64,000 bases of DNA from a virus (Duplodnaviria > Caudoviricetes): the IMG/VR virus record IMGVR_UViG_3300033067_002502, positions 106,417-170,416 of that record. One strand, 5' to 3'. Of this stretch, positions 38,186 through 60,697 are shown in pieces. Each line of letters starts with the position of its first letter. Position 1 is the stretch's first letter. Under the pieces are notes generated by a model. The model was given only the letters and a program-made list of their open reading frames with translations, ran no database searches and was not told where the DNA came from. Both the position numbers and the translations under genes were made by a program.

Positions 38186-40738
38186 ATGTCAGAAATAGAA
38201 ATAGAAAAAGAAAATCCATATATATGTTTAAGAGTTACAGATTCTACTACATTTATTATAGGTAAGCTATCTAAAGATATTTATAAAGAGTTAAAAACAA
38301 CTCTTGGTTATAAAGATCCTACTGCTGCGTGGAAAAATATTGATCCTGAAAAATGGGATGGATATGTAACTACGGTTTGTTATAATAAACAATGGTGTAG
38401 GTGTTCTATAAAGAAAGATGGAGTTCATTTCCCAACTGGTCTATATAGTAGAGCTATTGATTTTTTTAAAGCCTACAGTATTCCAGTTACTGTTGTTGAT
38501 GATCGTAGTAAATTTTCTAATAATAAAATTGACATTAGGACTAGTTCTTCTTTTCAGACTAGAGATTATCAACAAACTATTATTAATGATTCCGTTCAAA
38601 GACAAAGAGGTATTATAAAACTGGCCACTGGGGGCGGAAAGTGTTTGGGAAAAGGTACTCCTGTATTAATGCATGATGGTAAAATCAAAAATGTAGAAGA
38701 TATAAAGTCAGGAGATCTTTTGATGGGACCAGATTCCACTCCTAGAAAGGTTCTTTCTACTATTTCTGGTTATGATCAAATGTATAGAATTGTTCCTAAA
38801 AGAGGAACTCCGTTTATTGTAAATGAACCTCATATACTTTCTCTTAAAATGACTCGCGGCAGTAAAAAAGATGGTCAAATAGTAAATATATCAGTTAAAG
38901 ATTATCTTGAAAAAAATAAAACCTTTAAACATGTTGCAAAAGGTTATCGAGTTCCTGTTGATTTTACTTTGAAAAAAGTGCCACTTGATCCATATTTTAT
39001 AGGAATTTGGCTTGGAGATGGTAGATCTGATTCTCCAGAAATTAGTTCTAAAGATTCAGAAATAGTTGAGTATTTGAAGCATTTTGGTTCTTTACATAAT
39101 CTTAAGTTAATAACTAAGGTTTATGGCAATAGGTGTCCTCAGCATGCTATTTCTAACGGTCGTAAGGGAGGCGTAGTTGTTAATTCTGTTTTGAATTCTT
39201 TAAGAAAATTAAATCTTATTAATAATAAACATATTCCATTTATTTATAAAGTTAATGGAAAAAAGCAACGATTGCAATTATTAGCAGGACTTATTGATAC
39301 GGACGGAAGCCTTCATAATGGAGGATATGATTATATTTCAATTAGCGAAACACTAGCTAATGATGTTGCTTTTGTAGCAAGATCTCTAGGTTTAAAAGCC
39401 GTGGTTTCTCCATGTATAAAAACATGTTGTAATAATGGTAAAAAGGGTAATTATTATCGAGTATCTATTAGTGGAGATTGTAGTATTATTCCTGTAAAAA
39501 TTGAAAGAAAAAAAGCTCATGTAAGAAAACAAAAAAAAGATTGTTTGATGTTTGGATTTAATGTTGAAAAACTTGGAATTGATGAATATTTTGGTTTTGA
39601 AATAGATGGTGATAGGCTTTTTTTATTAGGCGATTTTACTGTAACTCATAATACGGCAGTAGGAGCAGGAATTATTAGTAGTTTAGGAGTTGCTCCTTTT
39701 ATTTTTTATGTTACATCTCAAGATTTGCTTACTCAAGCAAAAAACGAGTTTGAAAAGTTTTTAACAGTAGATGGAAAGCCTATTGAAATTGGCGTAATTG
39801 GAGCAGGACAGTGTAACATTAAAGATGTTAATATAATGACAATCCAAACAGCAATTAGAGCTTTGGGAGAAAAATTTACTAAGTTTGATGAAGAAGACGA
39901 ACCAGAGAAAATATCTGAAGCAACAAAATCCAGATACGAAGCAATTGCTGATTTGATTCATAATGCAAAAGCTTTTATTGCAGACGAAACACAACATTGG
40001 GCTGCTGAAACTTGTCAAGTCATTGCAGATCATTCTTATAATGCAAGATTCAGGTTTGGAATGTCAGCTACGCCTTGGAGAGATCTTGGAGATGATCTTT
40101 TAATTGATGCATGTTTTGGTAGAGTAATTGCGGATATAAATGCATCTTTCTTGATTAAGAAAGGAATTCTGGTAAGACCAACAATCTACTTTGTTCATAC
40201 AAAAAAGAAATTTGATGATTATGATATTACTTATTCAACTGCTTATAAAGAAGGAATTGCTGAAAATGAAGAGCGTAATTTAATTATTGCTAATATAGCT
40301 CAAAATATGGTTAAAGAAGGTAGAAATATTCTTATTCTAATAAAGCATATACCTCATGGACTTCTTTTAGAATCTCTTATTCCTGATAGCATTTTTCTTC
40401 ATGGATCTCACTCAGGTAAAGCAAGAAAAAAACATCTTGATAAAATGAGAGATAAAAAAGTTTCAGTTACAATAGCTACAAGTATATTTGATGAAGGTGT
40501 TGATGTTAAGTGTCTTGATGGTCTTATTTTGGGAGGATCGGGTAAGTCTCAAACTCGTGCATTGCAAAGGATTGGTAGAGTTATTAGAACTTATGAAGAT
40601 AACTTAACTGGATTCGTTAAAAAAGATGCATATGTTGTTGATTTTCATGATAACATGAAATACATGTATACTCATAGTAAAGCAAGAAGAACAATATACG
40701 AAACTGAACCAGAATTTATCATTAAGGATTTTAGGTAA
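38186..40738 (+). CDS. Superfamily 2 DNA helicase (UvsW/ResIII-like), intein-containing
   Basis: RDYQ Q-motif, ATGGGK|T Walker A interrupted by an intein, DETQH, MSATP, IFDEGVD, QRIGRVIR; ~513 aa after splicing. Confidence 0.9.
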   Translation: MSEIEIEKENPYICLRVTDSTTFIIGKLSKDIYKELKTTLGYKDPTAAWKNIDPEKWDGYVTTVCYNKQWCRCSIKKDGVHFPTGLYSRAIDFFKAYSIPVTVVDDRSKFSNNKIDIRTSSSFQTRDYQQTIINDSVQRQRGIIKLATGGGKCLGKGTPVLMHDGKIKNVEDIKSGDLLMGPDSTPRKVLSTISGYDQMYRIVPKRGTPFIVNEPHILSLKMTRGSKKDGQIVNISVKDYLEKNKTFKHVAKGYRVPVDFTLKKVPLDPYFIGIWLGDGRSDSPEISSKDSEIVEYLKHFGSLHNLKLITKVYGNRCPQHAISNGRKGGVVVNSVLNSLRKLNLINNKHIPFIYKVNGKKQRLQLLAGLIDTDGSLHNGGYDYISISETLANDVAFVARSLGLKAVVSPCIKTCCNNGKKGNYYRVSISGDCSIIPVKIERKKAHVRKQKKDCLMFGFNVEKLGIDEYFGFEIDGDRLFLLGDFTVTHNTAVGAGIISSLGVAPFIFYVTSQDLLTQAKNEFEKFLTVDGKPIEIGVIGAGQCNIKDVNIMTIQTAIRALGEKFTKFDEEDEPEKISEATKSRYEAIADLIHNAKAFIADETQHWAAETCQVIADHSYNARFRFGMSATPWRDLGDDLLIDACFGRVIADINASFLIKKGILVRPTIYFVHTKKKFDDYDITYSTAYKEGIAENEERNLIIANIAQNMVKEGRNILILIKHIPHGLLLESLIPDSIFLHGSHSGKARKKHLDKMRDKKVSVTIATSIFDEGVDVKCLDGLILGGSGKSQTRALQRIGRVIRTYEDNLTGFVKKDAYVVDFHDNMKYMYTHSKARRTIYETEPEFIIKDFR
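38642..39652 (+). mobile_element. Cis-intein (337 aa) with LAGLIDADG homing endonuclease, in the helicase Walker A
   Basis: Starts CLGKGTPV, block B VNEPHIL, ends FTVTHN followed by Thr; LAGLIDADG motifs IGIWLGDG and LAGLIDTDG. Confidence 0.95.
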
Positions 40739-42925: not shown

Positions 42926-43936
42926 ATGCCTAAAGAAGAAGAACTGGATTTTAGAAAAAAACATATTAGTATGGCTACGAAAGAGTTTAACAACAATTTT
43001 ATAGCGTTGCTTAGAACCAGAACTCAGGTTATTTATATATCTAGTAATGAAGAAAAAAGGCTTATTGAATATCTTCATAGCGTTTCTATGGATAGAGGAT
43101 ATGAAGCCTTTGAATGGGATTGTTTTTCTCTTTTAAGGAAATTAGGTTCAAAAGAAAAGATAACGATTACTTCGGGTTTAGATATTAGATATCCAGAACC
43201 AATTCTTACTTTCATTATAGAAGAATTAGAAAAAAGAGAAAAGAAGAAAGAAGATGGTAATGGTGCTTTATATATATTGTGTGATTTTTATAGATATCTA
43301 TCTCCAGATAGGTGTAATCCTCAAATAGAAAGACAAATAAAGCATATCAATAATCTTACTACAAATTGTCATGTTATATTTACAGGTCCAACTTATATAA
43401 ACAATCAATCTCTTGAAAAAGAAATATCTGTTTTAGATTTTCCTTTTCCTAATGAAAAAGAGATAAAAGAAGTATTAACAAGTCTTACAAATGCTGAAAA
43501 AGTAAAAACAGGAATACCTGGTATCAGCAAAATAATGGAAAAAAATGAAGAAGAATTGATTAATTCAGTAAAAGGACTTACTTTGATGGAGTCTCGCCAT
43601 GCTTATTCTAAGTCTATTGTTATGGCTAATCAATTAGGAATAAAGCCTTTAGATATAAATTTAATATTACAAGAGAAAAAAGAAATTATCAAAAAAACTG
43701 ATATTTTAGAATATGTTGATTCTAATAATACTACAATAGATAATGTTGGAGGACTTGACGATCTTGTTCGTTGGTTGAATATTCGCAAGGTATCTTTTTC
43801 TAAAGAGGCTATTGATTACGGACTAAAACCTCCAAAGGGAGTTTTGCTATTAGGGCTACCAGGATGTGTATTAGGAAATACAAAAATAAGAATTAGAAAG
43901 AAAAAAGAAGGGAAACATCTCATATACGTTTTGTAA
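42926..43936 (+). CDS. Ycf46-like AAA+ ATPase, N-terminal fragment ending in a split-intein N-part
   Basis: Ycf46 signatures (NEEKR, LDFPFP, EKKEIIKKTDILEY, VGGLDDL, YGLKPPKGVLLLGLPG), then CVLGNTKIRIR... and a stop. Confidence 0.9.
   Translation: MPKEEELDFRKKHISMATKEFNNNFIALLRTRTQVIYISSNEEKRLIEYLHSVSMDRGYEAFEWDCFSLLRKLGSKEKITITSGLDIRYPEPILTFIIEELEKREKKKEDGNGALYILCDFYRYLSPDRCNPQIERQIKHINNLTTNCHVIFTGPTYINNQSLEKEISVLDFPFPNEKEIKEVLTSLTNAEKVKTGIPGISKIMEKNEEELINSVKGLTLMESRHAYSKSIVMANQLGIKPLDINLILQEKKEIIKKTDILEYVDSNNTTIDNVGGLDDLVRWLNIRKVSFSKEAIDYGLKPPKGVLLLGLPGCVLGNTKIRIRKKKEGKHLIYVL
43865..43933 (+). mobile_element. Split intein N-fragment, 23 aa (CVLGNTKIRIRKKKEGKHLIYVL)
   Basis: Intein block A (C-V-x-G-x-T-x-I) begins exactly within Walker A (GLPG|C); strongly basic. 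Confidence 0.85.
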
Positions 43937-43958
43937 TCAGAATAATTTAGAGTACAGA

Positions 43959-44081
43959 ATGGTTGATGTTAGAATTATAGAAATTTCCCAATTAGCTGAA
44001 ATGTATTTTTCAAAACAGATAAGACTTAATAAAATATCAGAAGAACGATTTTTAACTTTAATTAAGAGAATTAACAAATGA
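43959..44081 (+). CDS. 40-aa mini-ORF between the split-intein halves (not in the ORF track)
   Basis: ATG 43959 to TGA 44081, MVDVRIIEISQLAEMYFSKQIRLNKISEERFLTLIKRINK; its stop overlaps the next start (ATGA). Confidence 0.4.
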   Translation: MVDVRIIEISQLAEMYFSKQIRLNKISEERFLTLIKRINK

Positions 44082-44455
44082 ATTTATATGAAGAAATAGA
44101 AATTGAAATACAAGATTTTTTTGCTATGGCAGAAAAAGAAGAAGGAATTTATGAAATAGATACTCCTGACGGTTGGCAAGAAATAGGATCTTTGATTAAA
44201 AAAAACAAAAAAGAGTGTTATATATTGCGAATGAGTAATGGAATTGAACTAGGATGCTCTAGTGAACATTTGGTTTTAACTGAAAATGGGTGGAAAAAAA
44301 CTAAAGATTTGGATGTTCAATTCGATTCGGTTTTATCTAAAAATGGAAGTACTTCTCTAATTGCAAAGGAATATGTTGGAATAAAAAATACATATGATTT
44401 GGAAGTTTTACACGAAAATCATAGATATTATTCTAATTCTATTATTTCACATAAT
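44078..44455 (+). mobile_element. Split intein C-fragment, 126 aa, endonuclease-free
   Basis: Lacks block A but has DTPDGW, block B CSSEHLV, block F TYDLEV and block G YYSNSIISHN followed by Cys. Confidence 0.88.
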
Positions 44456-46495
44456 TGTGGAAAGTCTCTAACAGCAAAAGCAACAGCAAGTGCGTATAAC
44501 ATGCCTCTTCTTCGTTTAGATTTTGGTAAAATGTTTAATTCTCTTGTTGGAGAAAGTGAAAAGATAGCTCGTCATGCAATTAAGCTTGCTGAAACAGTTG
44601 CTCCTTGTGTTAGCGGAGAATCTATAGTATATGATGATAATGGTAAATCTTATAAAATAAAAGATCTTGTAGAAAACGGCAATGGTGATAAGCCTATGTA
44701 TACATATTCTTTAAATGAAAAAACATGGAAATTAGAAAAAACTAAAGTAAAAGCAGTTATCAAGCATGCAGAAAAAAAGAAAATGCTTAGGATCTCTTCA
44801 TCTACAGGTTCTATTGATGTTACAGAAGATCACAAGATGATGGTAAATAGAGAAGGAAATCTTTTATGGGTTGAATCTAAAGATTTAACAAAGTCAGACG
44901 TTCTTGTTGTTTCTAAGACACTTGTTCGTACACAAAAGATTTTGAATATTAGAGAAATATTTCCTAATAAGAAAGACAAGAATATAACACTAAGATCTGG
45001 TGGGAAAATGCATTCAGCTGATGTTTCTGTATCACTTATTAGTCTTATGCATTTGGCTGTTATATCTGGAATGATTGATTCTAGCGGTTCGTGTAATGAA
45101 GAAACTGGAGATATTTTGTTTTCTCATGCAAATATCTCTATTTTACATTTTTTGGCATCTATGATGAGCGAGGCTTTTTTGACTGAGCCTCACGTTGGTA
45201 AAGATTTTGTTAAATTAAATAACAAAGTTGTTGCAAAAATGATTTCTCATTTTTTAGATAATGTTGGATCTCAAAATGAAGAAATAATTGGATGTTATTT
45301 GGGTGGGCATTTCCACGCTAGTGGAATCTTTGGCTTTGTTGATAAGGATGAAGATCCTTCAAGAAAACCATATGTTCAATTTTCTATTTTAACAGAAGGT
45401 GTATTTGATAGGATTCGTAAATCTTTGCTTGTTTATGGTATTATATCTTTTAAGTCTTTAAAAACAATGATTATCATAGATAATAATCATATTGAAACAT
45501 TTTTCCAAAAAGTTCCTATTCTTACAAAAAAAAGAGCTGTAGAAGTAAACAATTTTATAAATCATATTGAAAAATATCCTCCAAAATCAATAAATATGTT
45601 TGGATATAAATTTGGTAAATCGTTATTAAGTTTAAAGTCTGATTTTGGAATTACAGATGAAAAGTATGATAGCATATCTATGTTTGAAGAAAGCAATGCT
45701 GTTATGCAATATGATGTTGCTTCTTATTTGAATAGAGAAATTAAGAAAAATAGAAAAGAAAAAATAGATTGTCCTATTACTAAATTAGTTGAATCAGATA
45801 TAGTTTGTGTAAAGATTTATTCAATAGATTCTGTTGAAGAGCAGTGGGCTTACGATTTATCTTGTGAGGGTAATAATAATTTCTTTGCTAATGGATTTCT
45901 TTGCCATAATTGCATTCTTTGGGCTGATGAAATAGAGAAAGGTTTAGCTGGTGGAGTTGGTTCTGGATCTGGTGATAGCGGAACAACAAAAAGAGTTATT
46001 GGAACTTTTTTGACTTGGCTTCAAGAAAAGACAGCTCCAGTTTTTGTTATATGTACAGCTAATAATGTTCAAGATATTCCTCCAGAATTTATGAGAGCAG
46101 GTCGTTTTGATGAGGTATTTTTTGTTGATTTGCCAAGCAGTAAGGGTAGAGAGCAAATATTCAAAGTATTACTTAAAAAATTCAAATACGATCCAAATCT
46201 TTTTGATATTAAGGAATTATGTCTTTATACAAAAAATTATAGCGGTGCTGAAATCGAAAAAGCTATAGAAAATGCAATGTTTGAATGCTTTTGTGATAAT
46301 AAAAAAGAAATGCAAACAATAGATCTTGTTTTATCTTGCAGAAGCATAACTCCTTTATCAGAAACAAGAGATAAAGAATTCCAAGAAATGAGAACTTGGG
46401 CTAAGACTAGATGCAAATTTGCAAATACAGAAGAGTATGGTGGAAACGAAAAAGTAAATAAAAAAGAAATTGTAGATCTTGATTTCAATCAGTGA
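44078..46495 (+). CDS. Ycf46-like AAA+ ATPase, C-terminal fragment (split-intein C-part plus a second cis-intein)
   Basis: IntC ...SHN|CGKSLTAKA completes Walker A; LAETVAP|intein|CILWADEIEK Walker B; TANN...PPEFMRAGRFDE second region of homology. Confidence 0.9.
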   Translation: MNLYEEIEIEIQDFFAMAEKEEGIYEIDTPDGWQEIGSLIKKNKKECYILRMSNGIELGCSSEHLVLTENGWKKTKDLDVQFDSVLSKNGSTSLIAKEYVGIKNTYDLEVLHENHRYYSNSIISHNCGKSLTAKATASAYNMPLLRLDFGKMFNSLVGESEKIARHAIKLAETVAPCVSGESIVYDDNGKSYKIKDLVENGNGDKPMYTYSLNEKTWKLEKTKVKAVIKHAEKKKMLRISSSTGSIDVTEDHKMMVNREGNLLWVESKDLTKSDVLVVSKTLVRTQKILNIREIFPNKKDKNITLRSGGKMHSADVSVSLISLMHLAVISGMIDSSGSCNEETGDILFSHANISILHFLASMMSEAFLTEPHVGKDFVKLNNKVVAKMISHFLDNVGSQNEEIIGCYLGGHFHASGIFGFVDKDEDPSRKPYVQFSILTEGVFDRIRKSLLVYGIISFKSLKTMIIIDNNHIETFFQKVPILTKKRAVEVNNFINHIEKYPPKSINMFGYKFGKSLLSLKSDFGITDEKYDSISMFEESNAVMQYDVASYLNREIKKNRKEKIDCPITKLVESDIVCVKIYSIDSVEEQWAYDLSCEGNNNFFANGFLCHNCILWADEIEKGLAGGVGSGSGDSGTTKRVIGTFLTWLQEKTAPVFVICTANNVQDIPPEFMRAGRFDEVFFVDLPSSKGREQIFKVLLKKFKYDPNLFDIKELCLYTKNYSGAEIEKAIENAMFECFCDNKKEMQTIDLVLSCRSITPLSETRDKEFQEMRTWAKTRCKFANTEEYGGNEKVNKKEIVDLDFNQ
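44606..45910 (+). mobile_element. Cis-intein (435 aa) with degenerate LAGLIDADG domain, just before Walker B
   Basis: CVSGESIV...VTEDHKM...AYDLSCEGNNNFFANGFLCHN|C; endonuclease motifs read GMIDSSG and GHFHASG (acidic residue lost). Confidence 0.92.
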
Positions 46496-53438: not shown

Positions 53439-56048
53439 ATGAGTAAAACGTTATCTAATGCAGATTTTGTACATTTACATTGCCACTCGGAATATTCATC
53501 TTTTGATGGATTGAATAAAATTTCCCAATTCCCAAAAGCTGCAAAAGAAATGGGATTTAATGCACTTGCTCTAACAGATCACGGCAATATGGGCGGAGCA
53601 ATAAAATTTATGCAGGGCTGCAAAGCTGTTGATATAAAGCCTATTGTTGGTACTGAATTTTATCTTTCTAAAAACAGAAAAGTCAATTATACTGAAAAAA
53701 GAGAAGGAACTAAGATTACAAAAGGTCAAACAGATGGCCGTAAGGGTAATAGGCACCTTGTCTTAATAGCTAAAAATTGGGAAGGATGGCAAAATTTATG
53801 TACTCTTTCCCAAAGATCGTGGACAGAAGGATATTACATCGATCCAAGAATTGATATAAATCTACTTGCCGAATTTAGCGGAGGTTTGATTTGTAATTCA
53901 GCTTGTTTATCAAGCGTGATTAATGGCAACCTACTTCACGGAAGGTATAAAGAAGCACTAACTGCTGTGGGGATTTTTAAAGACATTTTTAAGGAAGATT
54001 TTCACCTTGAGGTGATGTATCATGGAATTGATGCAGAGGGAATGATAATACCTGATGTTATAAAATTAAGTAAAGAAATGAATGTTCCAATAATTGCAAC
54101 AAATGACTGCTTTGTTGCGGGGACAATGATTCGATCTCAGGGTGGCGTGATCCCAATAGAAAATATTTCAAAAAGAGATTTAGTTTTAACACATAAAAAT
54201 CGTTTTAGTCCTGTAGAATTTACAAATCAAAGAGTTGTTGATAAAACTTTCGTAGTAAAAACTGTATTAGGAACTTCCGCCTTTGAAACAACTGCAGAAC
54301 ACCCTGTATTAATTGTTCATAAAATTGGGACGAAATTTTCCGAACCAGAATGGAAATCTATTTCTTCTATAACAAATAATGATTATTTGTTACTACATAA
54401 GAATTATTCTGAAAAACAAGCATACGAATCTAGACCTGATATAGAATCAATTTATATTCCTGAAATAATTGGGGATAAATACAATTCAGATATCTTGGAA
54501 GATTCATATTATTTTACTCAGCAAGGTTTTGGAGGAAGAAAAGGACAAATTAAAATTCCTACAAATCTTGAACTTTGTGATGATTTACTGTTTATTATTG
54601 GAAGATTTATTGCTGAAGGATATTCAGACCAATCTTCTCATCAAATAGGGTTTGCGGCTAATTGCTCAGAAAAGCATATTCAAGACCGTATTGAATCTTA
54701 TTTTGCAAAATTTGGAGTTACGTCTTATAGGCCAGAAAAGGGTAAAGATTGTAAACTTGTTTTTACTTCTAAGATTTTTAAGGCTTTATTTACTTCTCTA
54801 TGCGGAATAGGTGCGGAAAATAAGCATTTACCATTAATAAATGGAAGTTATTTTACCTATTCTCGTAGACAAATGTTGAAAATCCTTGAAGGATACATTG
54901 GAGGTGATGGGCATATCGCAACAAAACCAGATAGGACTTCTGTTTTATGTGCAACAACTTCCAAACTTCTTGCATATCAAATTTCTGATGTTTTTCATGC
55001 TTTGGGTTTTATTTCATTACCAACCGTTAGGGACTTTAGTAAAGTAAAACATAAAAATCCAAAAGCAAATCCACAAAATTGGTCTCCTTTGTACGTTTTA
55101 CATATGAGTGAAATAGATATAAAACAATTTTGTAATCTGATAAATATAAAAAGAGAAATAATAGAGACAAAAAAAGTATCTCGTAGAAAATTTATTGATA
55201 TTGGTGATTACTTTGCTGTTAAAGTAAAATCCGTAATAGAAAATACAGAACAAAAAGTTGTATACAATATTCAAGTGCATGGAGATGAAAGTTATACAGC
55301 AAATTCTTATGTAGTACACAATTGTCATTATTGCAAAAAAGAGCAAGGACTTTCTCAAGAAATTCTTATGTGTATGTCTACGAGTAAGTGCCTTCATGAT
55401 CCAAAGCATTTGCATTTTCCATATCATGAATTTTATCTTAAATCTGCTGCTGAAATGGGCAAAATTTTTGGGTCTAATCCAGAGTTTTTGTTAAATACAG
55501 TTGCTGTTTCTGATAAAGTTGATTTCAAAAATATTTGGGAAAATCTAACTTCGGGAATGAGACTTCCTAGATATAAGATCCCAGAAAATTACTCATCTCC
55601 ATTAGATTATCTTACTAAATTATCATGGGAAGGTATGAAGAAATTAGGATGGGATAAAAGTCAGCCTCATATAGAAAGATTAAATATTGAGCTAGAAGAT
55701 GTTAGAGTCGCTTGGGAAAACAATAAGTATGATTTTGCAACTTATTTCCTTATTGTTAGAGATTATATACAAAAAGCAAAAGATAATAATATATTAACTG
55801 GATGCGGAAGAGGATCTGGTTATGCTAGTGTTTTATTGAGAACCATTGGCATTACATATGGTCCAGATCCTTTGAAATATGATCTTATTTGGGAAAGATT
55901 TCTTGGATTTGACTCGAAATATTTTGTTCAAGAACAGGATTTCTTTGGGGAAGCAGCAAAGGTTTCTGTTGAAGAAAAATCTACGCATGAAGAATTGTTT
56001 AAAGATAGAGATGTTGTAGATGATGCTGGTGGAGTAGATAGGTATTAA
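53439..56048 (+). CDS. dnaE: DNA polymerase III alpha, fragment 1 (PHP and first part of palm), intein-containing
   Basis: FVHLHCHSEYSSFDG, ALTDHGN, HLVLIAKN, ATND|CHY, YFLIVRDYI, GCGRGSG, DPLKYDLIWERFL, then a 47-aa non-DnaE tail. Confidence 0.92.
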   Translation: MSKTLSNADFVHLHCHSEYSSFDGLNKISQFPKAAKEMGFNALALTDHGNMGGAIKFMQGCKAVDIKPIVGTEFYLSKNRKVNYTEKREGTKITKGQTDGRKGNRHLVLIAKNWEGWQNLCTLSQRSWTEGYYIDPRIDINLLAEFSGGLICNSACLSSVINGNLLHGRYKEALTAVGIFKDIFKEDFHLEVMYHGIDAEGMIIPDVIKLSKEMNVPIIATNDCFVAGTMIRSQGGVIPIENISKRDLVLTHKNRFSPVEFTNQRVVDKTFVVKTVLGTSAFETTAEHPVLIVHKIGTKFSEPEWKSISSITNNDYLLLHKNYSEKQAYESRPDIESIYIPEIIGDKYNSDILEDSYYFTQQGFGGRKGQIKIPTNLELCDDLLFIIGRFIAEGYSDQSSHQIGFAANCSEKHIQDRIESYFAKFGVTSYRPEKGKDCKLVFTSKIFKALFTSLCGIGAENKHLPLINGSYFTYSRRQMLKILEGYIGGDGHIATKPDRTSVLCATTSKLLAYQISDVFHALGFISLPTVRDFSKVKHKNPKANPQNWSPLYVLHMSEIDIKQFCNLINIKREIIETKKVSRRKFIDIGDYFAVKVKSVIENTEQKVVYNIQVHGDESYTANSYVVHNCHYCKKEQGLSQEILMCMSTSKCLHDPKHLHFPYHEFYLKSAAEMGKIFGSNPEFLLNTVAVSDKVDFKNIWENLTSGMRLPRYKIPENYSSPLDYLTKLSWEGMKKLGWDKSQPHIERLNIELEDVRVAWENNKYDFATYFLIVRDYIQKAKDNNILTGCGRGSGYASVLLRTIGITYGPDPLKYDLIWERFLGFDSKYFVQEQDFFGEAAKVSVEEKSTHEELFKDRDVVDDAGGVDRY
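54108..55322 (+). mobile_element. Cis-intein (405 aa) with LAGLIDADG endonuclease, in the DnaE PHP TND-x-HY motif
   Basis: CFVAGTMI...TTAEHPV...VYNIQVHGDESYTANSYVVHN|C; motifs IGRFIAEG and EGYIGGDG. Confidence 0.95.
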
Positions 56049-56053
56049 TAAAT

Positions 56054-56599
56054 ATGGAAATGAAAATGGAAATAGATAAGAGTTTAAAAGGCAAAGAAGC
56101 TTCTCGTTTTCGCAAAGAAGATTTTGAATGCGATGTTCTTGCGAAGATGACGGTCTTTAGCTTATTGCATAGACTTGGTGCTAATAATTTGATTGCCGAA
56201 GCAGGTTCTGAAATTAATTTACCCTATTATCGAGATATTGAATGTGATTTGAATGGGAAGCATTTAATTATAAGTGCAGAGATTAAGACAATCTGGAAAT
56301 TTGGAAATGGATTTTTCCCTTTTGATACAATTCAGATTCTAAACAGAAAAGCAAAGGAAGCTCCTCATAATAAGAATAAATTTACAACGTTTATGATTTG
56401 TAGTGACGACTTAAAGGGTGTAGCAGTAATTAAATACGAATCATATGACAAGATTAACCCAGTGAAAATAAATACAAGTCGTGGAGAAGATTACGTTCGG
56501 CAAGTTCCTATTTCTGAAGTTACTTTTTATAGGTTGACTAATTATAGAAAAAATGAATGGGAAATTCTTAGAGATAAAACATGGCAGATACTATCGTAA
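56054..56599 (+). CDS. Putative PD-(D/E)xK nuclease (restriction-endonuclease-like)
   Basis: RDIECD...ISAEIKTIW...FPFDTIQILNRK gives a D-x14-E-x-K catalytic pattern. Confidence 0.5.
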   Translation: MEMKMEIDKSLKGKEASRFRKEDFECDVLAKMTVFSLLHRLGANNLIAEAGSEINLPYYRDIECDLNGKHLIISAEIKTIWKFGNGFFPFDTIQILNRKAKEAPHNKNKFTTFMICSDDLKGVAVIKYESYDKINPVKINTSRGEDYVRQVPISEVTFYRLTNYRKNEWEILRDKTWQILS

Positions 56600-57420
56600 A
56601 AAGGGTTGGAGGTAAAATAAAGATTAGGAAATGGATAAAAAGTTTATTTCCTATTCATAGTCTTTATTGCGAACCTTTTGGAGGTAGTTTTGCTGTTGGG
56701 TTTCTTATGCCAAAACAAGATGCAAAATATAGGCTTGTTTATAATGATTTAGATGGAAATGTTTGGAATCTTTTCAAGGTTCTTAGAGATCATGAAAAAG
56801 AATTTATAAGAATGGTATCTCTCACTCCATATAGTAGAAGAGAATTTGATGAAGCAAATGATTACATAGATAATAAAAAATTTCTTTTGAAAGATGAACC
56901 AGTTGAGTGGGCTAGAAATTATTTAGTATATAACAGACAATGCATGTTTGGTAAAGAAGATGGATCTTGGTGCGTCTCTAGGGTTGGAGAGAATATCTGC
57001 CTTACTTGGGCTAATTTGCCGAGTCTAATTAAAGATAATATCAAATTTCTTCGTAATGTGTATATAGAAAATTTGGATTATAAAAAATGTATTGAAAAAT
57101 GGGACTGTCCTGAAGCCTTGTTTTATTTAGATCCTCCGTATGAAGGGGTTGAGAAAGACTTTTATAAGGTCAATAAAAAAGAAGGCTTTGATCATGTTGA
57201 TTTTTCTAAATTTGTAAAAACAGTAAAAGGAAGCTGTGCAATCTCTTATTATGATTCCGAATTTGTCCGAAATCTATATCAAGAAAAAGATGGATTTACT
57301 ATTTATGAAAAATCTGTCGTAAAAAGCATGCAGACTAAAAAAGAAAAAGATACAGTAACGGAATTGTTAATAGTCAAAGAAAGCAATTGGGCCAAGAGTG
57401 TAGAAAAATCTATATTTTAG
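56581..57420 (+). CDS. Dam-like DNA adenine methyltransferase (D12, alpha class)
   Basis: GGK, YCEPFGGS, VYNDLD, IENLDY, FYLDPPY, TELLI. Confidence 0.9.
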   Translation: MADTIVKRVGGKIKIRKWIKSLFPIHSLYCEPFGGSFAVGFLMPKQDAKYRLVYNDLDGNVWNLFKVLRDHEKEFIRMVSLTPYSRREFDEANDYIDNKKFLLKDEPVEWARNYLVYNRQCMFGKEDGSWCVSRVGENICLTWANLPSLIKDNIKFLRNVYIENLDYKKCIEKWDCPEALFYLDPPYEGVEKDFYKVNKKEGFDHVDFSKFVKTVKGSCAISYYDSEFVRNLYQEKDGFTIYEKSVVKSMQTKKEKDTVTELLIVKESNWAKSVEKSIF

Positions 57421-57427
57421 GAATAAT

Positions 57428-58414
57428 ATGTCAGAAATAAAACAAGAAATAATTGATGCAGTAAAAGATAAAAGTTTGCTTTCAAAAGTTCAAGAAGAAC
57501 TTAATCAAATGGAGGCTACTGACGGTTTAGATGATAAGCCTATTCTAAATAAGTTTCATGGTCTTTGGAAGAACTCAAAAGGAAACATAGGTCATCGTAA
57601 TGACATTAATTCATGGACAGCATATGCGATAGGCATGACAGATAAAAAGCCAGAAGAAGGCTCTTCTTTTTTGCAAAAAAGACGGGCTTTTGCTCGTAAG
57701 GGCTTTCCTGATATTGATTCTGATTTTGACTACGAACATCGTGATAAAATTTACGAATACATAATTGAAACATACGGAAGAGATCATGTAGGTAATATTG
57801 GAACTTATTCTGGTTTGAAGATGAAAAGTTTTATTCGTAGAGCGGTTAAGGCTACAGATCCAGAGCGAACATTTTTCAAGGGGTTTGATGAATGGAAAAC
57901 GTCAACAAATTTGCTTGGCGATGAAATATTAAAATCACTGCCTGATCAATACGGAGCTTTCTTAAAAGTAAAAGATAAAAATGGAGAAGAACATGAAATT
58001 AGAACCGTTGAAGATGCTAATAAGTGGTGCAAAAACTTTCGCTATTATATTGATAAGTATCCCGATTTGCTTACGCATTCTCGTAGTATTGAGGGACTTT
58101 TATCCACTTTTGGATGTTTGTCAGCCAATACTCCTATTCTTACTTCAGATGGCTGGATAAGAATAGATCAACTTAATAATCACAAAATAGCCTTTTTAGA
58201 TAAAAACAGTAATCTATCTTATTCTGATAAATATATTTGCAAATTTACAGGAATTAAAAAAACTTATAAACTTAGACTGAAGAATGGTAATTTTATTGAA
58301 GTTACTGATGAGCATTTAATTTTTACGAATAAAGGACTTAAAAAATTCAAAGAAATTAGAGAAAATCCAAAGGAATTTTTACTGTATTCATTGAATACAG
58401 ATCCTGCTGCATGA
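57428..58414 (+). CDS. dnaE: DNA polymerase III alpha, fragment 2 (catalytic PDID palm and thumb) ending in a split-intein N-part
   Basis: ~88-aa extra N-terminus, then GFPDIDSDF...YG.DHV..IGTY...IEGLLSTFG|CLSANTPI. Confidence 0.9.
   Translation: MSEIKQEIIDAVKDKSLLSKVQEELNQMEATDGLDDKPILNKFHGLWKNSKGNIGHRNDINSWTAYAIGMTDKKPEEGSSFLQKRRAFARKGFPDIDSDFDYEHRDKIYEYIIETYGRDHVGNIGTYSGLKMKSFIRRAVKATDPERTFFKGFDEWKTSTNLLGDEILKSLPDQYGAFLKVKDKNGEEHEIRTVEDANKWCKNFRYYIDKYPDLLTHSRSIEGLLSTFGCLSANTPILTSDGWIRIDQLNNHKIAFLDKNSNLSYSDKYICKFTGIKKTYKLRLKNGNFIEVTDEHLIFTNKGLKKFKEIRENPKEFLLYSLNTDPAA
58115..58411 (+). mobile_element. Split intein N-fragment (99 aa)
   Basis: Block A CLSANTPILTSDG and block B IEVTDEHLIFT; no block F/G before the stop. 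Confidence 0.92.
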
Positions 58415-59283
58415 AGTATGCTGTAGGAGACATTAAAATGGAAAAATGCAATATTTGTAACAAAGAATTTAGTAGTGAAATTGGATTAAAAAGACACGTA
58501 ACTATAATGTTTGGAAAAGACAGTACTCATTGTCCTTGGTTAGTATATTTATCAAAATACAAAAATATAGATAAATATAGTAAAAATTCTTTAGAAAAAA
58601 TGTATTTAATTGAAAAGAAAACAACTCCTCAGATTTCTCAAGAATTGAATGTTCAAAAATTAACATTATTAAGAACAATGAAATATTATGATATTAAATT
58701 AAGAAATCGCTCAGAGTCTACAAAGAATCAAATTACTAGAGACGGAGTATGGAATGCTGGAAAAACAAAATATAATAATAAATCTATTGCTAGATATTCT
58801 CGTTCTAGATTGGGCAAATTGAATCCATTTTATACTGCTCCTGGATATGAAGAAAGATATAAAAAACTAATGAATGTTGCCAAAAAGGGTATTGCAAAAT
58901 TTTGCGCAAATAGAAATCCAAAAACAACAGAAGATCGTTTATCTAAAATATTAAAAAATGTAAATATTAATTATGTAAGAAATTTTTCTATAAATTACAA
59001 CCAAACATGGAGATTGTTTGATTTTCTTATAGAAGGAAATCTTCTTGTAGAAATGCAGGGTAATTATTTTCACGCTAATCCTAAATTTTATAAATCAAAT
59101 GATATTGTTGTAATAGGTTCTGAAAAAAGATTGGTAAGAGAAATTTGGGAAAAAGATAAAGAGAAGGCTTCTCTTGCAATTAATAGCGGTTATTCTTTAT
59201 TAGTGATTTGGGAAGATGATTTTTGTGACATGACCGACGAAGAAGTATTGTTAAAAATAAAGGAAGAACTACATGATAATTGA
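58411..59283 (+). CDS. Free-standing homing endonuclease, Vsr/DUF559-like, with Zn-finger, HTH and NUMOD3-like DNA-binding modules
   Basis: CNICNKEF...LKRH; LEKMY...ISQELNV; WNAGKTK...KLNPFY; TTE...LFDFLI...LVEMQGNYFH...DKEK...GYSLLVIWE. Overlaps both dnaE fragments. Confidence 0.8.
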   Translation: MKYAVGDIKMEKCNICNKEFSSEIGLKRHVTIMFGKDSTHCPWLVYLSKYKNIDKYSKNSLEKMYLIEKKTTPQISQELNVQKLTLLRTMKYYDIKLRNRSESTKNQITRDGVWNAGKTKYNNKSIARYSRSRLGKLNPFYTAPGYEERYKKLMNVAKKGIAKFCANRNPKTTEDRLSKILKNVNINYVRNFSINYNQTWRLFDFLIEGNLLVEMQGNYFHANPKFYKSNDIVVIGSEKRLVREIWEKDKEKASLAINSGYSLLVIWEDDFCDMTDEEVLLKIKEELHDN

Positions 59284-59413
59284 TTTTGTTGAAATAGATT
59301 CTATAACTGAAATTAAAGAACAACCAGTTTATGATATATCTTTTGGAGATACAAAACTTGATTTTTTTCAAAAAGAGCCAAATTATTTTGCTAATAAGAT
59401 ATTAGTACATAAT
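59273..59413 (+). mobile_element. Split intein C-fragment (47 aa)
   Basis: MIIDFVEIDSI...PVYDIS...PNYFANKILVHN followed by Cys; blocks F and G only. Confidence 0.92.
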
Positions 59414-60697
59414 TGTCATGCTGCTGGAATTGTGATTTCTAGTGAACCTTTGTCAAAAATATCTCCTCTTAGACAAACTAAGATTGCATCAGAAGATGCA
59501 GATGGCACTCCTAAATATGCATTTGCTACTCAGTTTGAGTATAATGACTTAGAATTTATTGGTCTTATTAAGTTTGATATCTTGGCATTAAGTACTTTGT
59601 CTGTTATAAATAGGTGTTGTAAATTAATTAAAGATAATTATGATATAAATATAAATCTATGGGATCTTCCCCTTGATGATAAAAAAACATTTGATCTTTA
59701 TAAGAGTGGTAAATTGTCTGGAGTTTTCCAATGCGAAGAACCTGGAATGCAAAAAACAATGATAAACATGGGAGTTGACTCTCTTGATGATATTATGGCA
59801 GGAATTGCATTGTACCGTCCTGGTCCTATGGATTCTATTCCTACTTATTGTGGAAGAAAACACGGAGTAGAGCCAATTGACTATTTTCATTCTTCTCTTA
59901 AGAAATATATTGAACCTCATGTAAGAAAAACGTATGGTCTTTTGGTTTATCAAGAACAAGTTATGAATATATGTAACTCTGTTGCTAATTTTTCAATTCC
60001 AGAAGGTTATGTTGTTATCAAAGCAATCGGTAAGAAAGATCCAAAACTTTTAGCAAAATATAGAAGTAAATTTGTTTCTGGTGCTAAAGAAAACGGTATT
60101 GAAGATAAAGTATCTCAAGATTACTGGGATAGAGTTATTACTCCATTTGCTAGCTATGGATTTAATAAGGCACATGCTTGTTGTTATGCTTATAATTCTT
60201 ACATAACTGCTTATTTGAAAGCAAATTATCCAGAAGAATTTTTGACAGCCTATTTCAACGTTGAAGTCGGTAGGGCAAATTATGATAAAATTTATGTTCT
60301 AGAAAAGGTTGCTCATGAAATGAATATTGAGATTGTAAATAGAAACATAAATCATTGTAAAGTTTTGTATTCTATTGCAAAAAAAGCAGATCCAGCTAAC
60401 GGTATTCCAAAATCTCAAATTATTCCATCTCTTAAATGTAAAGGATTGAGTGATGGTGCTGCTACCGAGATTGTAAGTAAGCAACCTTTTTCTAGTCTTT
60501 TGGATTTTGCAGAAAAAACAAGCACTAAACTTGTTGATATAAAAGCTTTTGATGCTTTGTTGGATGCAGGTTTTTTTAGGCCAAAAGAGGGAAGAGGAAA
60601 GGGAAAGGAGTCTATTATGAAAGAATTTACTATTATTAGGGATGATTTAAAAAGAGCAAGAAAAAAAGGATTAGATACGGGTAATATATTTGAGTGA
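59273..60697 (+). CDS. dnaE: DNA polymerase III alpha, fragment 3 (split-intein C-part, palm end, fingers, HhH)
   Basis: IntC|CHAAGIVIS, GLIKFDILAL, GVFQCE, ALYRPGP, TYGLLVYQEQVM, YGFNKAHA, AYLKANYP.EF. Confidence 0.92.
   Translation: MIIDFVEIDSITEIKEQPVYDISFGDTKLDFFQKEPNYFANKILVHNCHAAGIVISSEPLSKISPLRQTKIASEDADGTPKYAFATQFEYNDLEFIGLIKFDILALSTLSVINRCCKLIKDNYDININLWDLPLDDKKTFDLYKSGKLSGVFQCEEPGMQKTMINMGVDSLDDIMAGIALYRPGPMDSIPTYCGRKHGVEPIDYFHSSLKKYIEPHVRKTYGLLVYQEQVMNICNSVANFSIPEGYVVIKAIGKKDPKLLAKYRSKFVSGAKENGIEDKVSQDYWDRVITPFASYGFNKAHACCYAYNSYITAYLKANYPEEFLTAYFNVEVGRANYDKIYVLEKVAHEMNIEIVNRNINHCKVLYSIAKKADPANGIPKSQIIPSLKCKGLSDGAATEIVSKQPFSSLLDFAEKTSTKLVDIKAFDALLDAGFFRPKEGRGKGKESIMKEFTIIRDDLKRARKKGLDTGNIFE

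Follow-up and report, generated by a model that had tools for sequence, protein, structure and literature searches.

In the window, the 64-kb stretch of phage DNA analysed here, a gene for an AAA+ ATPase is broken within its Walker A loop, and the break is occupied by what we take, with a probability of roughly 85%, to be a naturally split class 1 intein of the S1 type, resembling VidaL and predicted from its sequence to splice. Two adjacent genes on the same strand each carry one half of this host gene together with one part of the intein, the arrangement of a fractured gene, and the ATPase halves would most likely be joined by the intein after translation. Gene 1 (42926..43936, + strand; 336 aa) comprises a 313-aa N-extein (42926..43864) ending in G-L-P-G, the first half of Walker A, followed by a 23-codon IntN (43865..43933, or 43865..43936 with the stop; C-V-L-G-N-T-K-I-R-I-R-K-K-K-E-G-K-H-L-I-Y-V-L), which starts with the Cys1 codon at 43865-67 and runs directly into a TAA stop at 43934-36. 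Beyond a gap of 141 nt (43937..44077), gene 2 (44078..46495, + strand; 805 aa) opens with the IntC, whose 126 codons (44078..44455) extend from the ATG start to S-H-N, with the +1 Cys codon at 44456-58. There follow, all on the + strand, a 50-aa middle extein immediately preceding position 44606 (44456..44605; C-G-K-S, the rest of Walker A, to T-V-A-P), a second, contiguous intein of 435 aa (44606..45910) and a C-extein of 194 aa plus stop (45911..46495) with Walker B, the remaining AAA domain and the lid. Intein 1 lies between Walker A residues four and five, G-L-P-G/C-G-K-S. An earlier note on this DNA had described an atypical split into a 23-aa IntN and a 126-aa IntC, and every anatomical detail of it proved correct, including the many in-frame stops of the gap (nine in the frame of gene 1), the Walker A junction that the predicted trans-splicing would restore, and an ATPase of ~557 aa, a length obtained (313 + 50 + 194 = 557 aa) once the second intein is also removed.

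The host protein is a phage classical-clade AAA+ ATPase. Its N-extein matches positions 17-315 of the 568 positions of phrog_8638 and shares 30-68% identity with the corresponding region of relatives that are intein-free or split, while the C-extein matches positions 366-558 of the same family (E 2e-59) as well as Pfam AAA and AAA_lid_3. The best NCBIfam matches of the exteins were PAN, CDC48 and FtsH, which belong to the classical clade of AAA proteins and all scored far below the cut-offs, and no Ycf46 model was listed among these matches. The gene had first been labelled a Ycf46-like AAA+ ATPase; the AAA part of that label is borne out by Pfam AAA, and the more specific matches seen were phrog_8638 and, below their cut-offs, PAN, CDC48 and FtsH. 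One relative is named "SpoVK/Ycf46/Vps4 family" in a JGI record. A blastn comparison of the locus with 50,697 phage records returned no match. No second copy of the ATPase was found in the 170-kb record, so that function would depend on joining the pieces; the record is ~34% complete by CheckV, and an intact second copy may lie elsewhere in the genome.

The second intein (C-V-S-G-E-S … F-L-C-H-N, followed by the +1 Cys of C-I-L-W-A-D-E-I-E-K) sits just before Walker B and matches Pfam Intein_splicing at E 7e-24, and at both ends it resembles inteins of solved structure in the PDB. The closest relative of the gene (L016) reads through Walker A uninterrupted as G-M-P-G-C-G-K-S, and is 68% identical to the window in the N-extein and 90% identical in the middle extein; where the window has its second intein, this relative carries one that is 37% identical. 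The central 267 aa of the second intein matched no Pfam family even at E 10. By eye, this central domain may hold two LAGLIDADG-like stretches, I-S-G-M-I-D-S-S-G and L-G-G-H-F-H-A-S-G, in both of which Ser replaces the acidic residue.

The same gene is broken at the same residue in at least nine other metagenomic loci. In L001, L004, L006, L007, L008, L009 and L010, and also in L018 and L019, the N halves are 320-353 aa long and end with the pattern G-x-P-G/C-V-L-G-x-T-K-I-x-[IV]-K-K-I-…-stop; on the other side of the break, 19 C halves start with the IntC. Independent contigs in JGI, ENA and Logan assemblies show the break again with the same motifs, far beyond chance: the split is real. Relatives retrieved by tblastn, the check suggested in the earlier note, included intein-free, split and contiguous alleles alike.

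Sequence features of intein 1 are those of a class 1 intein. Cys1, the class 1 nucleophile, stands directly after G-L-P-G and is invariant in eight IntN sequences, the aligned tails of which share invariant C, V, K-I, K, G and I. The IntC of the window carries block B as C-S-S-E-H, block F as T-Y-D-L-E-V and block G as S-H-N. Across 19 IntC sequences M1, C60, S61, H64, T105, D107, L108, S124, H125 and N126 are invariant, so that block B (C60, S61, H64; n = 19) fits the [TS]-x-x-H pattern of class 1 inteins, and all 19 have Cys or Thr at +1 (Cys in the window). The position of the split is that of the S1 type, with an IntN of 23 aa (24-36 aa in relatives) at the end of its ORF, then TAA, and an IntC that has its own start codon (M1), the first helix I-Q-D-F-F-A-M-A-E and the later HINT elements. 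A basic IntN facing an acidic IntC head, noticed at the outset from the window alone (7 K/R and 1 E in the IntN), holds throughout the family: in six loci, net charge ranges from +1 to +6 in the IntN and from -4 to -9 in the first 28 residues of the IntC. Mean identities were 64% for the IntN, 54% for the IntC, 54% for the C-extein and 40% for the N-extein, with protein-level identity among the compared sequences at 35-65%, a divergence at which synonymous sites would be saturated. Intein 1 is thus conserved to the same degree as the AAA core, and this parity in the alignments points to purifying selection on the intein. The recurring break, the invariant catalytic residues and homology to VidaL together support the original reading as an atypically split intein.

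Among solved structures, phmmer of the IntC against the PDB placed VidaL first (6vgv, E 3.6e-15, query residues 3-129), followed by the DnaX and gp41-1 inteins; the 33-aa IntN tail alone gave no match, as expected at that length. VidaL, which is naturally split at the S1 position and already characterised, has an IntN of 16 aa (Neugebauer 2017 and Burton 2020, as cited in PMC13014065; PDB 6vgv/6vgw). It shares the split point of the window intein, its IntC start aligning within two residues, and it too seems to sit in a P-loop, as judged from the end of its solved chain (…S-H-A/S-G-K). It differs, presumably, in host protein, and also in a +1 Ser where the window has Cys and in the length of its IntN, which at 23 aa here includes an extra G-K-H-L-I-Y-V-L tail. 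Since the nearest solved relative is VidaL, the window intein is VidaL-like rather than AceL-TerL-like; the comparison with AceL-TerL drawn in the earlier note was apt for the short-IntN kind but not for the closest relative. AceL-TerL and GOS-TerL are natural split inteins from environmental phage, with IntN of 25 and 37 aa, that have been used for semisynthesis (PMC11766414, PMC13014065). Like these and the consensus intein Cat-TerL (PDB 6dsl), the window intein is naturally split with a short IntN; unlike AceL-TerL and GOS-TerL, which sit in the large terminase, it sits in an AAA ATPase. AceL-TerL and GOS-TerL, moreover, have an S2 split after the first helix, which AceL-TerL keeps in the IntN, whereas here the helix is in the IntC, and CatC (Cat-TerL) is only weakly similar to the IntC (E 0.005). 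Membership of the AceL-TerL/GOS-TerL type was rejected on these three points (AAA host, helix in the IntC, CatC at E 0.005). PolB16 OarG, from a gut metagenome, is likewise a natural S1-type split intein with a very short IntN of 15 aa (Pasch 2023; PMC10189870), but it is cysteine-less (Ser1), has a PolB host and is absent among the PDB sequence matches of the IntC.

In most relatives (L001, L006, L008, L009, L010, L019 and the P0033 contig) the halves are separated by a free-standing gene for a homing endonuclease, encoding NUMOD3 plus a TnsA-like PD-(D/E)xK domain. Adjacent same-strand ORFs with split-intein halves and a free-standing homing endonuclease between them were described as fractured genes (Dassa, London, Stoddard, Schueler-Furman and Pietrokovski 2009; PMC2677866), and six sequenced relatives and the P0033 contig share that layout exactly. 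The fractured genes of that study differ in having eight DNA synthesis and repair hosts, with no AAA, ATPase, P-loop or Walker mentioned, in that all inteins but one break at the canonical endonuclease-insertion site (PMC2677866), and in their GIY-YIG or Vsr-like endonucleases. They also differ in that the endonuclease gene of the window is deleted down to a 50-codon tail: no intact endonuclease ORF lies between the halves here, and a ~50-codon 3' remnant (43929..44081, + strand) takes its place. Within it, a 40-codon ORF (43959..44081) ends on an ATGA that also supplies the IntC start. With the endonuclease proteins of five relatives as queries, tblastn across the 64 kb matched this remnant and nothing else (E 1e-6 to 2e-4), and when all 170 kb of the record were searched independently, the one match was 43914..44048 (E 1e-6). 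An alignment shows the similarity, which may begin as early as 43899, there in a different frame that overlaps the end of the IntN. The 141-nt gap, described earlier as rich in stops, does contain them, but it is no plain spacer; by its homology it is the last ~50 codons of the homing endonuclease gene, left by deletion. The deletion removed ~0.75-0.95 kb of that gene, and the codons that stayed include the sequence immediately before the IntC start codon. Because only this remnant is left, the window locus is a derived, endonuclease-less form, a decayed fractured gene.

Decay might also have reached the ATPase, the halves of which would then, after the loss of the endonuclease, be a pseudogene pair whose fragments are unjoined or unmade. 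We consider this improbable. It would be in keeping with the clear decay of the endonuclease gene in the window, with an intein 2 central domain that matches no family, as general decay of mobile parts might produce, and with the closest relative, which does without intein 1. Moreover, the Shine-Dalgarno-like motif before the IntC start (A-A-G-A-G-A) is weaker than the G-G-A-G of most relatives, and expression of the IntC could therefore be low. However, the frames are fully open (336 + 805 codons) in very AT-rich DNA where random frames are short, the catalytic residues of both inteins and the Walker A, Walker B and lid motifs are all intact, and the record has no other ATPase copy to take over. 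Split alleles without the endonuclease have furthermore arisen at least three times independently by deletion (the window, L007 and L018), with differing junctions, and their frames have remained open each time.

Joining after translation thus remains the preferred reading, and the steps that we propose for it draw on the sequence and on the known behaviour of these families. Genes 1 and 2 would be co-transcribed. A scan of 43700..44300 found no terminator-like site, and promoter-like sites in the same interval did not exceed those in shuffles (4 vs 2.6 ± 1.9). Upstream of the IntC starts, a DNA alignment revealed no conserved hairpin; the one recurrent feature, present in most relatives, was a purine-rich motif resembling G-G-A-G. 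Rfam, including its group I introns, gave no match in 43600-44400, and an intron acting at the RNA level was rejected for the gap on that ground. Gene 1 would yield the 313-aa N-extein followed by the 23-aa basic IntN, and gene 2 the 126-aa IntC with its acidic head, followed by the remaining ATPase with the cis-splicing intein inside it. The IntN strand T-K-I-R-I-R would dock between the IntC strands E-I-E-I-E-I and Y-E-I-D and complete the HINT fold, upon which trans-splicing would follow its standard course, with Cys1, the His of block B, the His-Asn at the end of the IntC and the +1 Cys as catalytic residues. Once intein 2 had also spliced in cis, the product would be a single ATPase of 557 aa whose P-loop is intact.

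A model of the IntN-IntC complex places the IntN strand G-N-T-K-I-R-I-R-K (chain residues 17-25) between IntC residues 8-11 and 25-28. Its score of 0.81 (best control 0.02; at least 90% of contacts agreeing between runs; partner pLDDT at least 68), a mark reached in benchmarking by 58 of 80 solved complexes and by 2 of 110 mismatched pairs, may echo solved inteins, and because complexes of related inteins have been solved we take it as a likeness to known inteins rather than as independent proof of binding. The tight docking that the model suggests would also suit intein halves that merely hold the ATPase pieces together non-covalently and do not splice, an arrangement reported for a phage ribonucleotide reductase that is likewise in fragments (PMC3045599). 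That reading is very unlikely here: the break interrupts the P-loop four residues ahead of its Lys, such that ~150 intein residues would remain in the nucleotide pocket, and 19 sequences keep without exception Cys1, the His of block B, the terminal His-Asn and a +1 Cys/Thr, none of which docking alone requires. An assembly or sequencing error, with a continuous real gene or a chimeric join at the gap, is conceivable for a contig of metagenomic origin but hardly credible, given that at least nine loci, which differ in sample and assembler, share the stop after the IntN and the IntC start Met, and given a gap that is a coherent object, an endonuclease tail at the exact place where relatives carry that gene.

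With trans-splicing as the favoured reading, the intein is a well-supported addition to a kind of element that is already known, though its members have rarely been characterised. The literature searched holds no split intein in the Walker A of a phage AAA ATPase; of the earlier claim of a new split intein in a new host protein, the host is accordingly absent from that literature, while the kind was already known. Natural short-IntN split inteins in the literature searched were AceL-TerL, GOS-TerL, VidaL and PolB16 only (PMC13014065). The rarity first ascribed to them holds among characterised inteins but not in metagenomes, where the family is large, with 79 starting at the protein N-terminus among the best 149 IntC clusters, and has most of its members in P-loops. 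When the IntN of a natural split intein is short enough to be made by peptide synthesis, the intein is a valued tool for protein semisynthesis and for editing proteins in living cells. To such tools the locus contributes a group related to VidaL, ~20 diverged natural sequences that have IntN pieces of 23-24 aa, a native +1 Cys or Thr and conserved charge complementarity; these charge-zippered IntN variants suit consensus design or a search for orthogonal pairs.

For the phage, the predicted consequence is an ATPase whose nucleotide pocket would form only after splicing in trans and splicing in cis had both taken place. Considered with its relatives, the locus shows the fate of a fractured gene after its homing endonuclease has decayed. 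Intein-free alleles (P0004, with G-M-P-G-C-G-K-S, and P0007, L016, L017 and L022-24) stand beside the split alleles with an endonuclease, alleles in which the endonuclease is fused in frame to the IntC (P0057, P0058), the split alleles that have lost it, and contiguous alleles (P0045, L020), where in L020, and perhaps in P0045, the linker is a piece of the endonuclease core. In others (P0032-34, P0040) the gene is in three pieces, with a second, canonically split intein. We lean, with some reserve, towards reading these alleles as a natural series, with the states empty, split with endonuclease, fused, orphan split, contiguous by in-frame re-fusion, and three-piece. If the series is true, transitions between split and contiguous inteins go both ways in nature, and a split intein persists longer than its endonuclease because its removal needs an exact deletion.

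The split feature in the window is a genuine and conserved VidaL-like atypically split intein that breaks an AAA+ ATPase inside its Walker A motif. Gene 1 (42926..43936, + strand) ends in …G-V-L-L-L-G-L-P-G, then C-V-L-G-N-T-K-I-R-I-R-K-K-K-E-G-K-H-L-I-Y-V-L and a TAA stop, and gene 2 (44078..46495, +) starts with M-N-L-Y-E-E-I-E-I-E-I-Q-D-F-F… and runs through …S-I-I-S-H-N/C-G-K-S at residue 126/127 (ORF list and raw sequence). Borders computed by script place a 23-aa N part (IntN) at 43865..43933 (+) and a 126-aa C part (IntC) at 44078..44455 (+), and the 141-nt gap between the halves holds nine stops in the frame of gene 1. Extein lengths of 313 + 50 + 194 give a 557-aa ATPase, so that the gene ends, fragment lengths, junctions, gap stops and ~557-aa product claimed in the earlier note were all correct. 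Gene 2 also contains a second intein, 435 aa long and contiguous (44606..45910, +; …T-V-A-P/C-V-S-G-E-S … F-L-C-H-N/C-I-L-W-A-D-E-I-E-K), which lies just before Walker B and has intact splicing blocks; in relatives this site is either empty or occupied by a mini-intein or by a canonically split intein. No Pfam family matched its central ~270 aa, even at E 10, and two LAGLIDADG-like stretches picked out by eye have Ser in place of an acidic residue, so its endonuclease may be dead.

A gene 1 query retrieved intein-free full-length relatives of 553-572 aa, such as P0004 (intact G-M-P-G-C-G-K-S) and P0007 (G-A-P-G-T-G-K-S), together with four shorter proteins (320-350 aa) that, like gene 1, end ~24 residues past G-x-P-G/C-V-L-G. 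The contigs of the N halves, and those of C halves that an IntC query had retrieved, yielded complete loci (L001, L006, L008, L009 and L010) and partial ones (L004 and L007), while L018, L019 and L020 were recovered by scanning viral contigs; the N gene of every such locus has the conserved IntN at its end. Across 19 aligned IntC-bearing C halves, the start Met, block B (C-S-x-x-H), block F (T-[FY]-D-L) and terminal S-H-N are invariant, and the first residue after the intein is Cys or Thr in all 19, followed by G-K-S. The loci with this break were obtained from different samples, through three sources of assemblies, and share only 35-65% identity, which for practical purposes excludes an assembly artefact. 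Mean pairwise identity is 64% for IntN, 54% for IntC, 54% for the C-extein and 40% for the N-extein. Conservation of the intein at least equal to that of the ATPase core argues for selection on splicing.

When IntC was compared with all PDB chains (phmmer), VidaL (6vgv) ranked first (E 3.6e-15, query residues 3-129), with the starting Met of its C fragment aligned two residues from the start of the window IntC, and the Spl DnaX mini-intein, gp41-1 and DnaB inteins came next, with CatC as a weak match (E 0.005). Atypical splits known from nature are of two kinds, S1 just after the early strands (VidaL, 16-aa IntN; PolB16, 15 aa) and S2 after the first helix (AceL-TerL, 25 aa; GOS-TerL, 37 aa) (PMC13014065). 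The earlier note had the AceL-TerL type in mind, which was not borne out: AceL-TerL and GOS-TerL are split after the first helix, whereas in the window that helix (I-Q-D-F-F-A-M-A-E) lies in IntC, pointing to an S1-type, VidaL-like split. The charge complementarity that it described did hold, with IntN carrying a net +1 to +6 and the first 28 IntC residues a net -4 to -9, a contrast conserved across six loci. We also modelled a complex of two chains, one made up of IntC and five extein residues and the other of IntN preceded by the last 13 extein residues, supplying an alignment for each. The model scored 0.81 against 0.02 for the best of three controls, passing a mark attained by 58/80 solved complexes and 2/110 mismatched pairs, but structures of related inteins are already solved and the pass therefore indicates likeness to those rather than proof that this pair binds. 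At least 90% of contacts agreed between runs, partner pLDDT was at least 68, and in the contacts of lowest error the strand of IntN (G-N-T-K-I-R-I-R-K, chain residues 17-25) lay between IntC 8-11 (E-I-E-I) and 25-28 (Y-E-I-D).

The gap itself preserves the remnant of a gene for a homing endonuclease. Between their halves, L001, L006, L008, L009, L010, L019 and the P0033 contig have a 302-368-codon gene with NUMOD3 and Tn7_TnsA-like_N / PD-(D/E)xK matches. This is the same layout as that of the fractured genes of Dassa et al. 2009 (PMC2677866), although the endonucleases there are GIY-YIG and Vsr-like rather than NUMOD3/TnsA-like, and the terms AAA, ATPase, P-loop and Walker do not occur in its text. 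When the endonucleases of five relatives were searched against the whole window (tblastn), they matched a single place, 43899/43929..44042/44069 (E 1e-6 to 2e-4), and when all 170 kb of the record were searched independently, that place came up again (E 1e-6) and no further copy was found. In the alignment, F-C-N-Q-N-N-L-E-Y-R-M-V-D-V-R-I-I-E… in the window corresponds to …[FY]-C-K-[KQ]-N-N-L-[EQ]-Y-[RQ]-[MI]-[VT]-D-[AIV]-[KR]-I-[IL]-[DE]… within the last ~50 residues of the endonucleases, a match that identifies the 40-codon ORF at 43959..44081 (+) as the tail of a deleted homing endonuclease gene, of which ~250-310 codons have been lost. The stop of this tail overlaps the IntC start (ATGA), and in most relatives the G-G-A-G motif for IntC lies inside the 3' end of the endonuclease gene; it is reasonable to infer that the tail was retained for the sake of IntC translation. 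No Rfam family matched the gap, so it holds no group I intron, and no terminator-like site was found in it.

A sequence search for relatives recovered all three states that the earlier note had suggested looking for, namely contiguous, split and absent inteins. Intein-free alleles are represented by P0004, P0007, L017 and L022-24, as well as by the Walker A site of the closest relative, L016 (170,562-bp contig; 68% N-extein and 90% middle-extein identity), which reads an uninterrupted G-M-P-G-C-G-K-S; its Walker B site does have an intein, 37% identical to the second intein of the window. Alongside the split loci that keep the endonuclease gene, the window, L007 and L018 lack it, each with a different junction: the 141-nt gap with an endonuclease tail in the window, an N ORF extended by 12 residues resembling an endonuclease tail and overlapping the IntC start by 4 nt in L007, and a gap of ~52 nt in L018. 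The window intein is thus an endonuclease-less derivative of a fractured gene. In P0057 and P0058, a NUMOD3/TnsA-like endonuclease is fused in frame with IntC and the C-extein, which could be the step whereby a free-standing endonuclease becomes part of an intein fragment. In L020 (3020-3580) the intein is contiguous, its IntN and IntC being joined through a linker of 23 residues (Y-S-P-D-F-I-V-D-G-K-V-L-V-E-V-K-P-K…) whose Y-S-P-D-F … E-V-K-P matches the free-standing endonuclease in its PD-(D/E)xK core. This form looks like the outcome of a deletion in frame by which a split intein was fused again; P0045 is also contiguous, with a 15-residue linker. Three-piece genes (P0032-34 and P0040) combine the atypical split at Walker A with a canonical split at Walker B, the piece ending in the long N part of that second intein; the P0033 contig includes the third gene piece, which an additional ORF of 223 aa separates from the second.

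An exhaustive phmmer search with IntC of 1.84 billion representative proteins gave 790 matches at E ≤ 1e-3 (114 at E ≤ 1e-10). Among the best 149 analysable matches, IntC stands at the protein N-terminus in 79, which would accordingly be split at about the same point with a short IntN encoded elsewhere, and 47 of these 79 directly precede the rest of a P-loop ([CTS]-G-K-[ST]); in 13 of the 149 the intein is clearly contiguous, and several of these 13 interrupt DnaB-like P-loops. These counts show that short-IntN split inteins are few among characterised examples, not few in nature. Many IntC relatives (e.g. P0077, P0081, P0086, P0087 and P0094) have 35-60 preceding residues without intein block A, then T-G-K-[ST] after IntC; this stretch is a separate, recurrent N-terminal extension on split-intein C fragments.

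Both ATPase halves match one functionally unannotated phage family, phrog_8638 (N-extein to profile 17-315, C-extein to 366-558). The AAA domain belongs to the classical clade, with PAN, CDC48 and FtsH models best and all below their cut-offs, and the architecture, together with the name of a relative in one JGI record, makes the label 'Ycf46-like' plausible. The ATPase gene is part of a conserved replication module, which in relatives runs D12 methyltransferase, hypothetical protein, IF3, the ATPase, another hypothetical protein (faintly DnaC-like), DnaB and primase. The IF3 homologue (IF3_N + IF3_C) lies directly upstream of the ATPase gene in five relatives (L001:4037-4549, L006:918-1418, L008:2512-3015, L009:2337-2879 and L010:2304-2801), and is absent from the corresponding place in the window. 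The 170,416-bp IMG/VR virus contig has no second copy of the ATPase and is 34% complete by CheckV, so the phage may be very large, in the huge-phage size class. Elsewhere, the window has four consecutive giant ORFs (2096-32879, +; 2746, 1507, 2768 and 3230 codons), an 850-aa ResIII/Helicase_C helicase (38186-40738) with an intein bearing Hom_end_hint, Hom_end and LAGLIDADG_3 at ~residues 150-430, whose L004 homologue has an intein as well, and DnaE (Pol III alpha subunit) pieces in several genes (53439-60697), the first of which (869 aa) contains a LAGLIDADG-bearing intein; between the DnaE pieces is a gene for a D12 methyltransferase (56581-57420).

Sequence evidence strongly supports a mechanism in which the short basic IntN would dock into a largely complete IntC, standard class-1 trans-splicing would follow, and the second intein would be removed by cis-splicing. 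This host protein does not occur in the literature searched. The relatives supply a diverse set of natural inteins with 23-24-aa IntN, which is of practical value, and form an unusually complete allele series that displays endonuclease loss and re-fusion.
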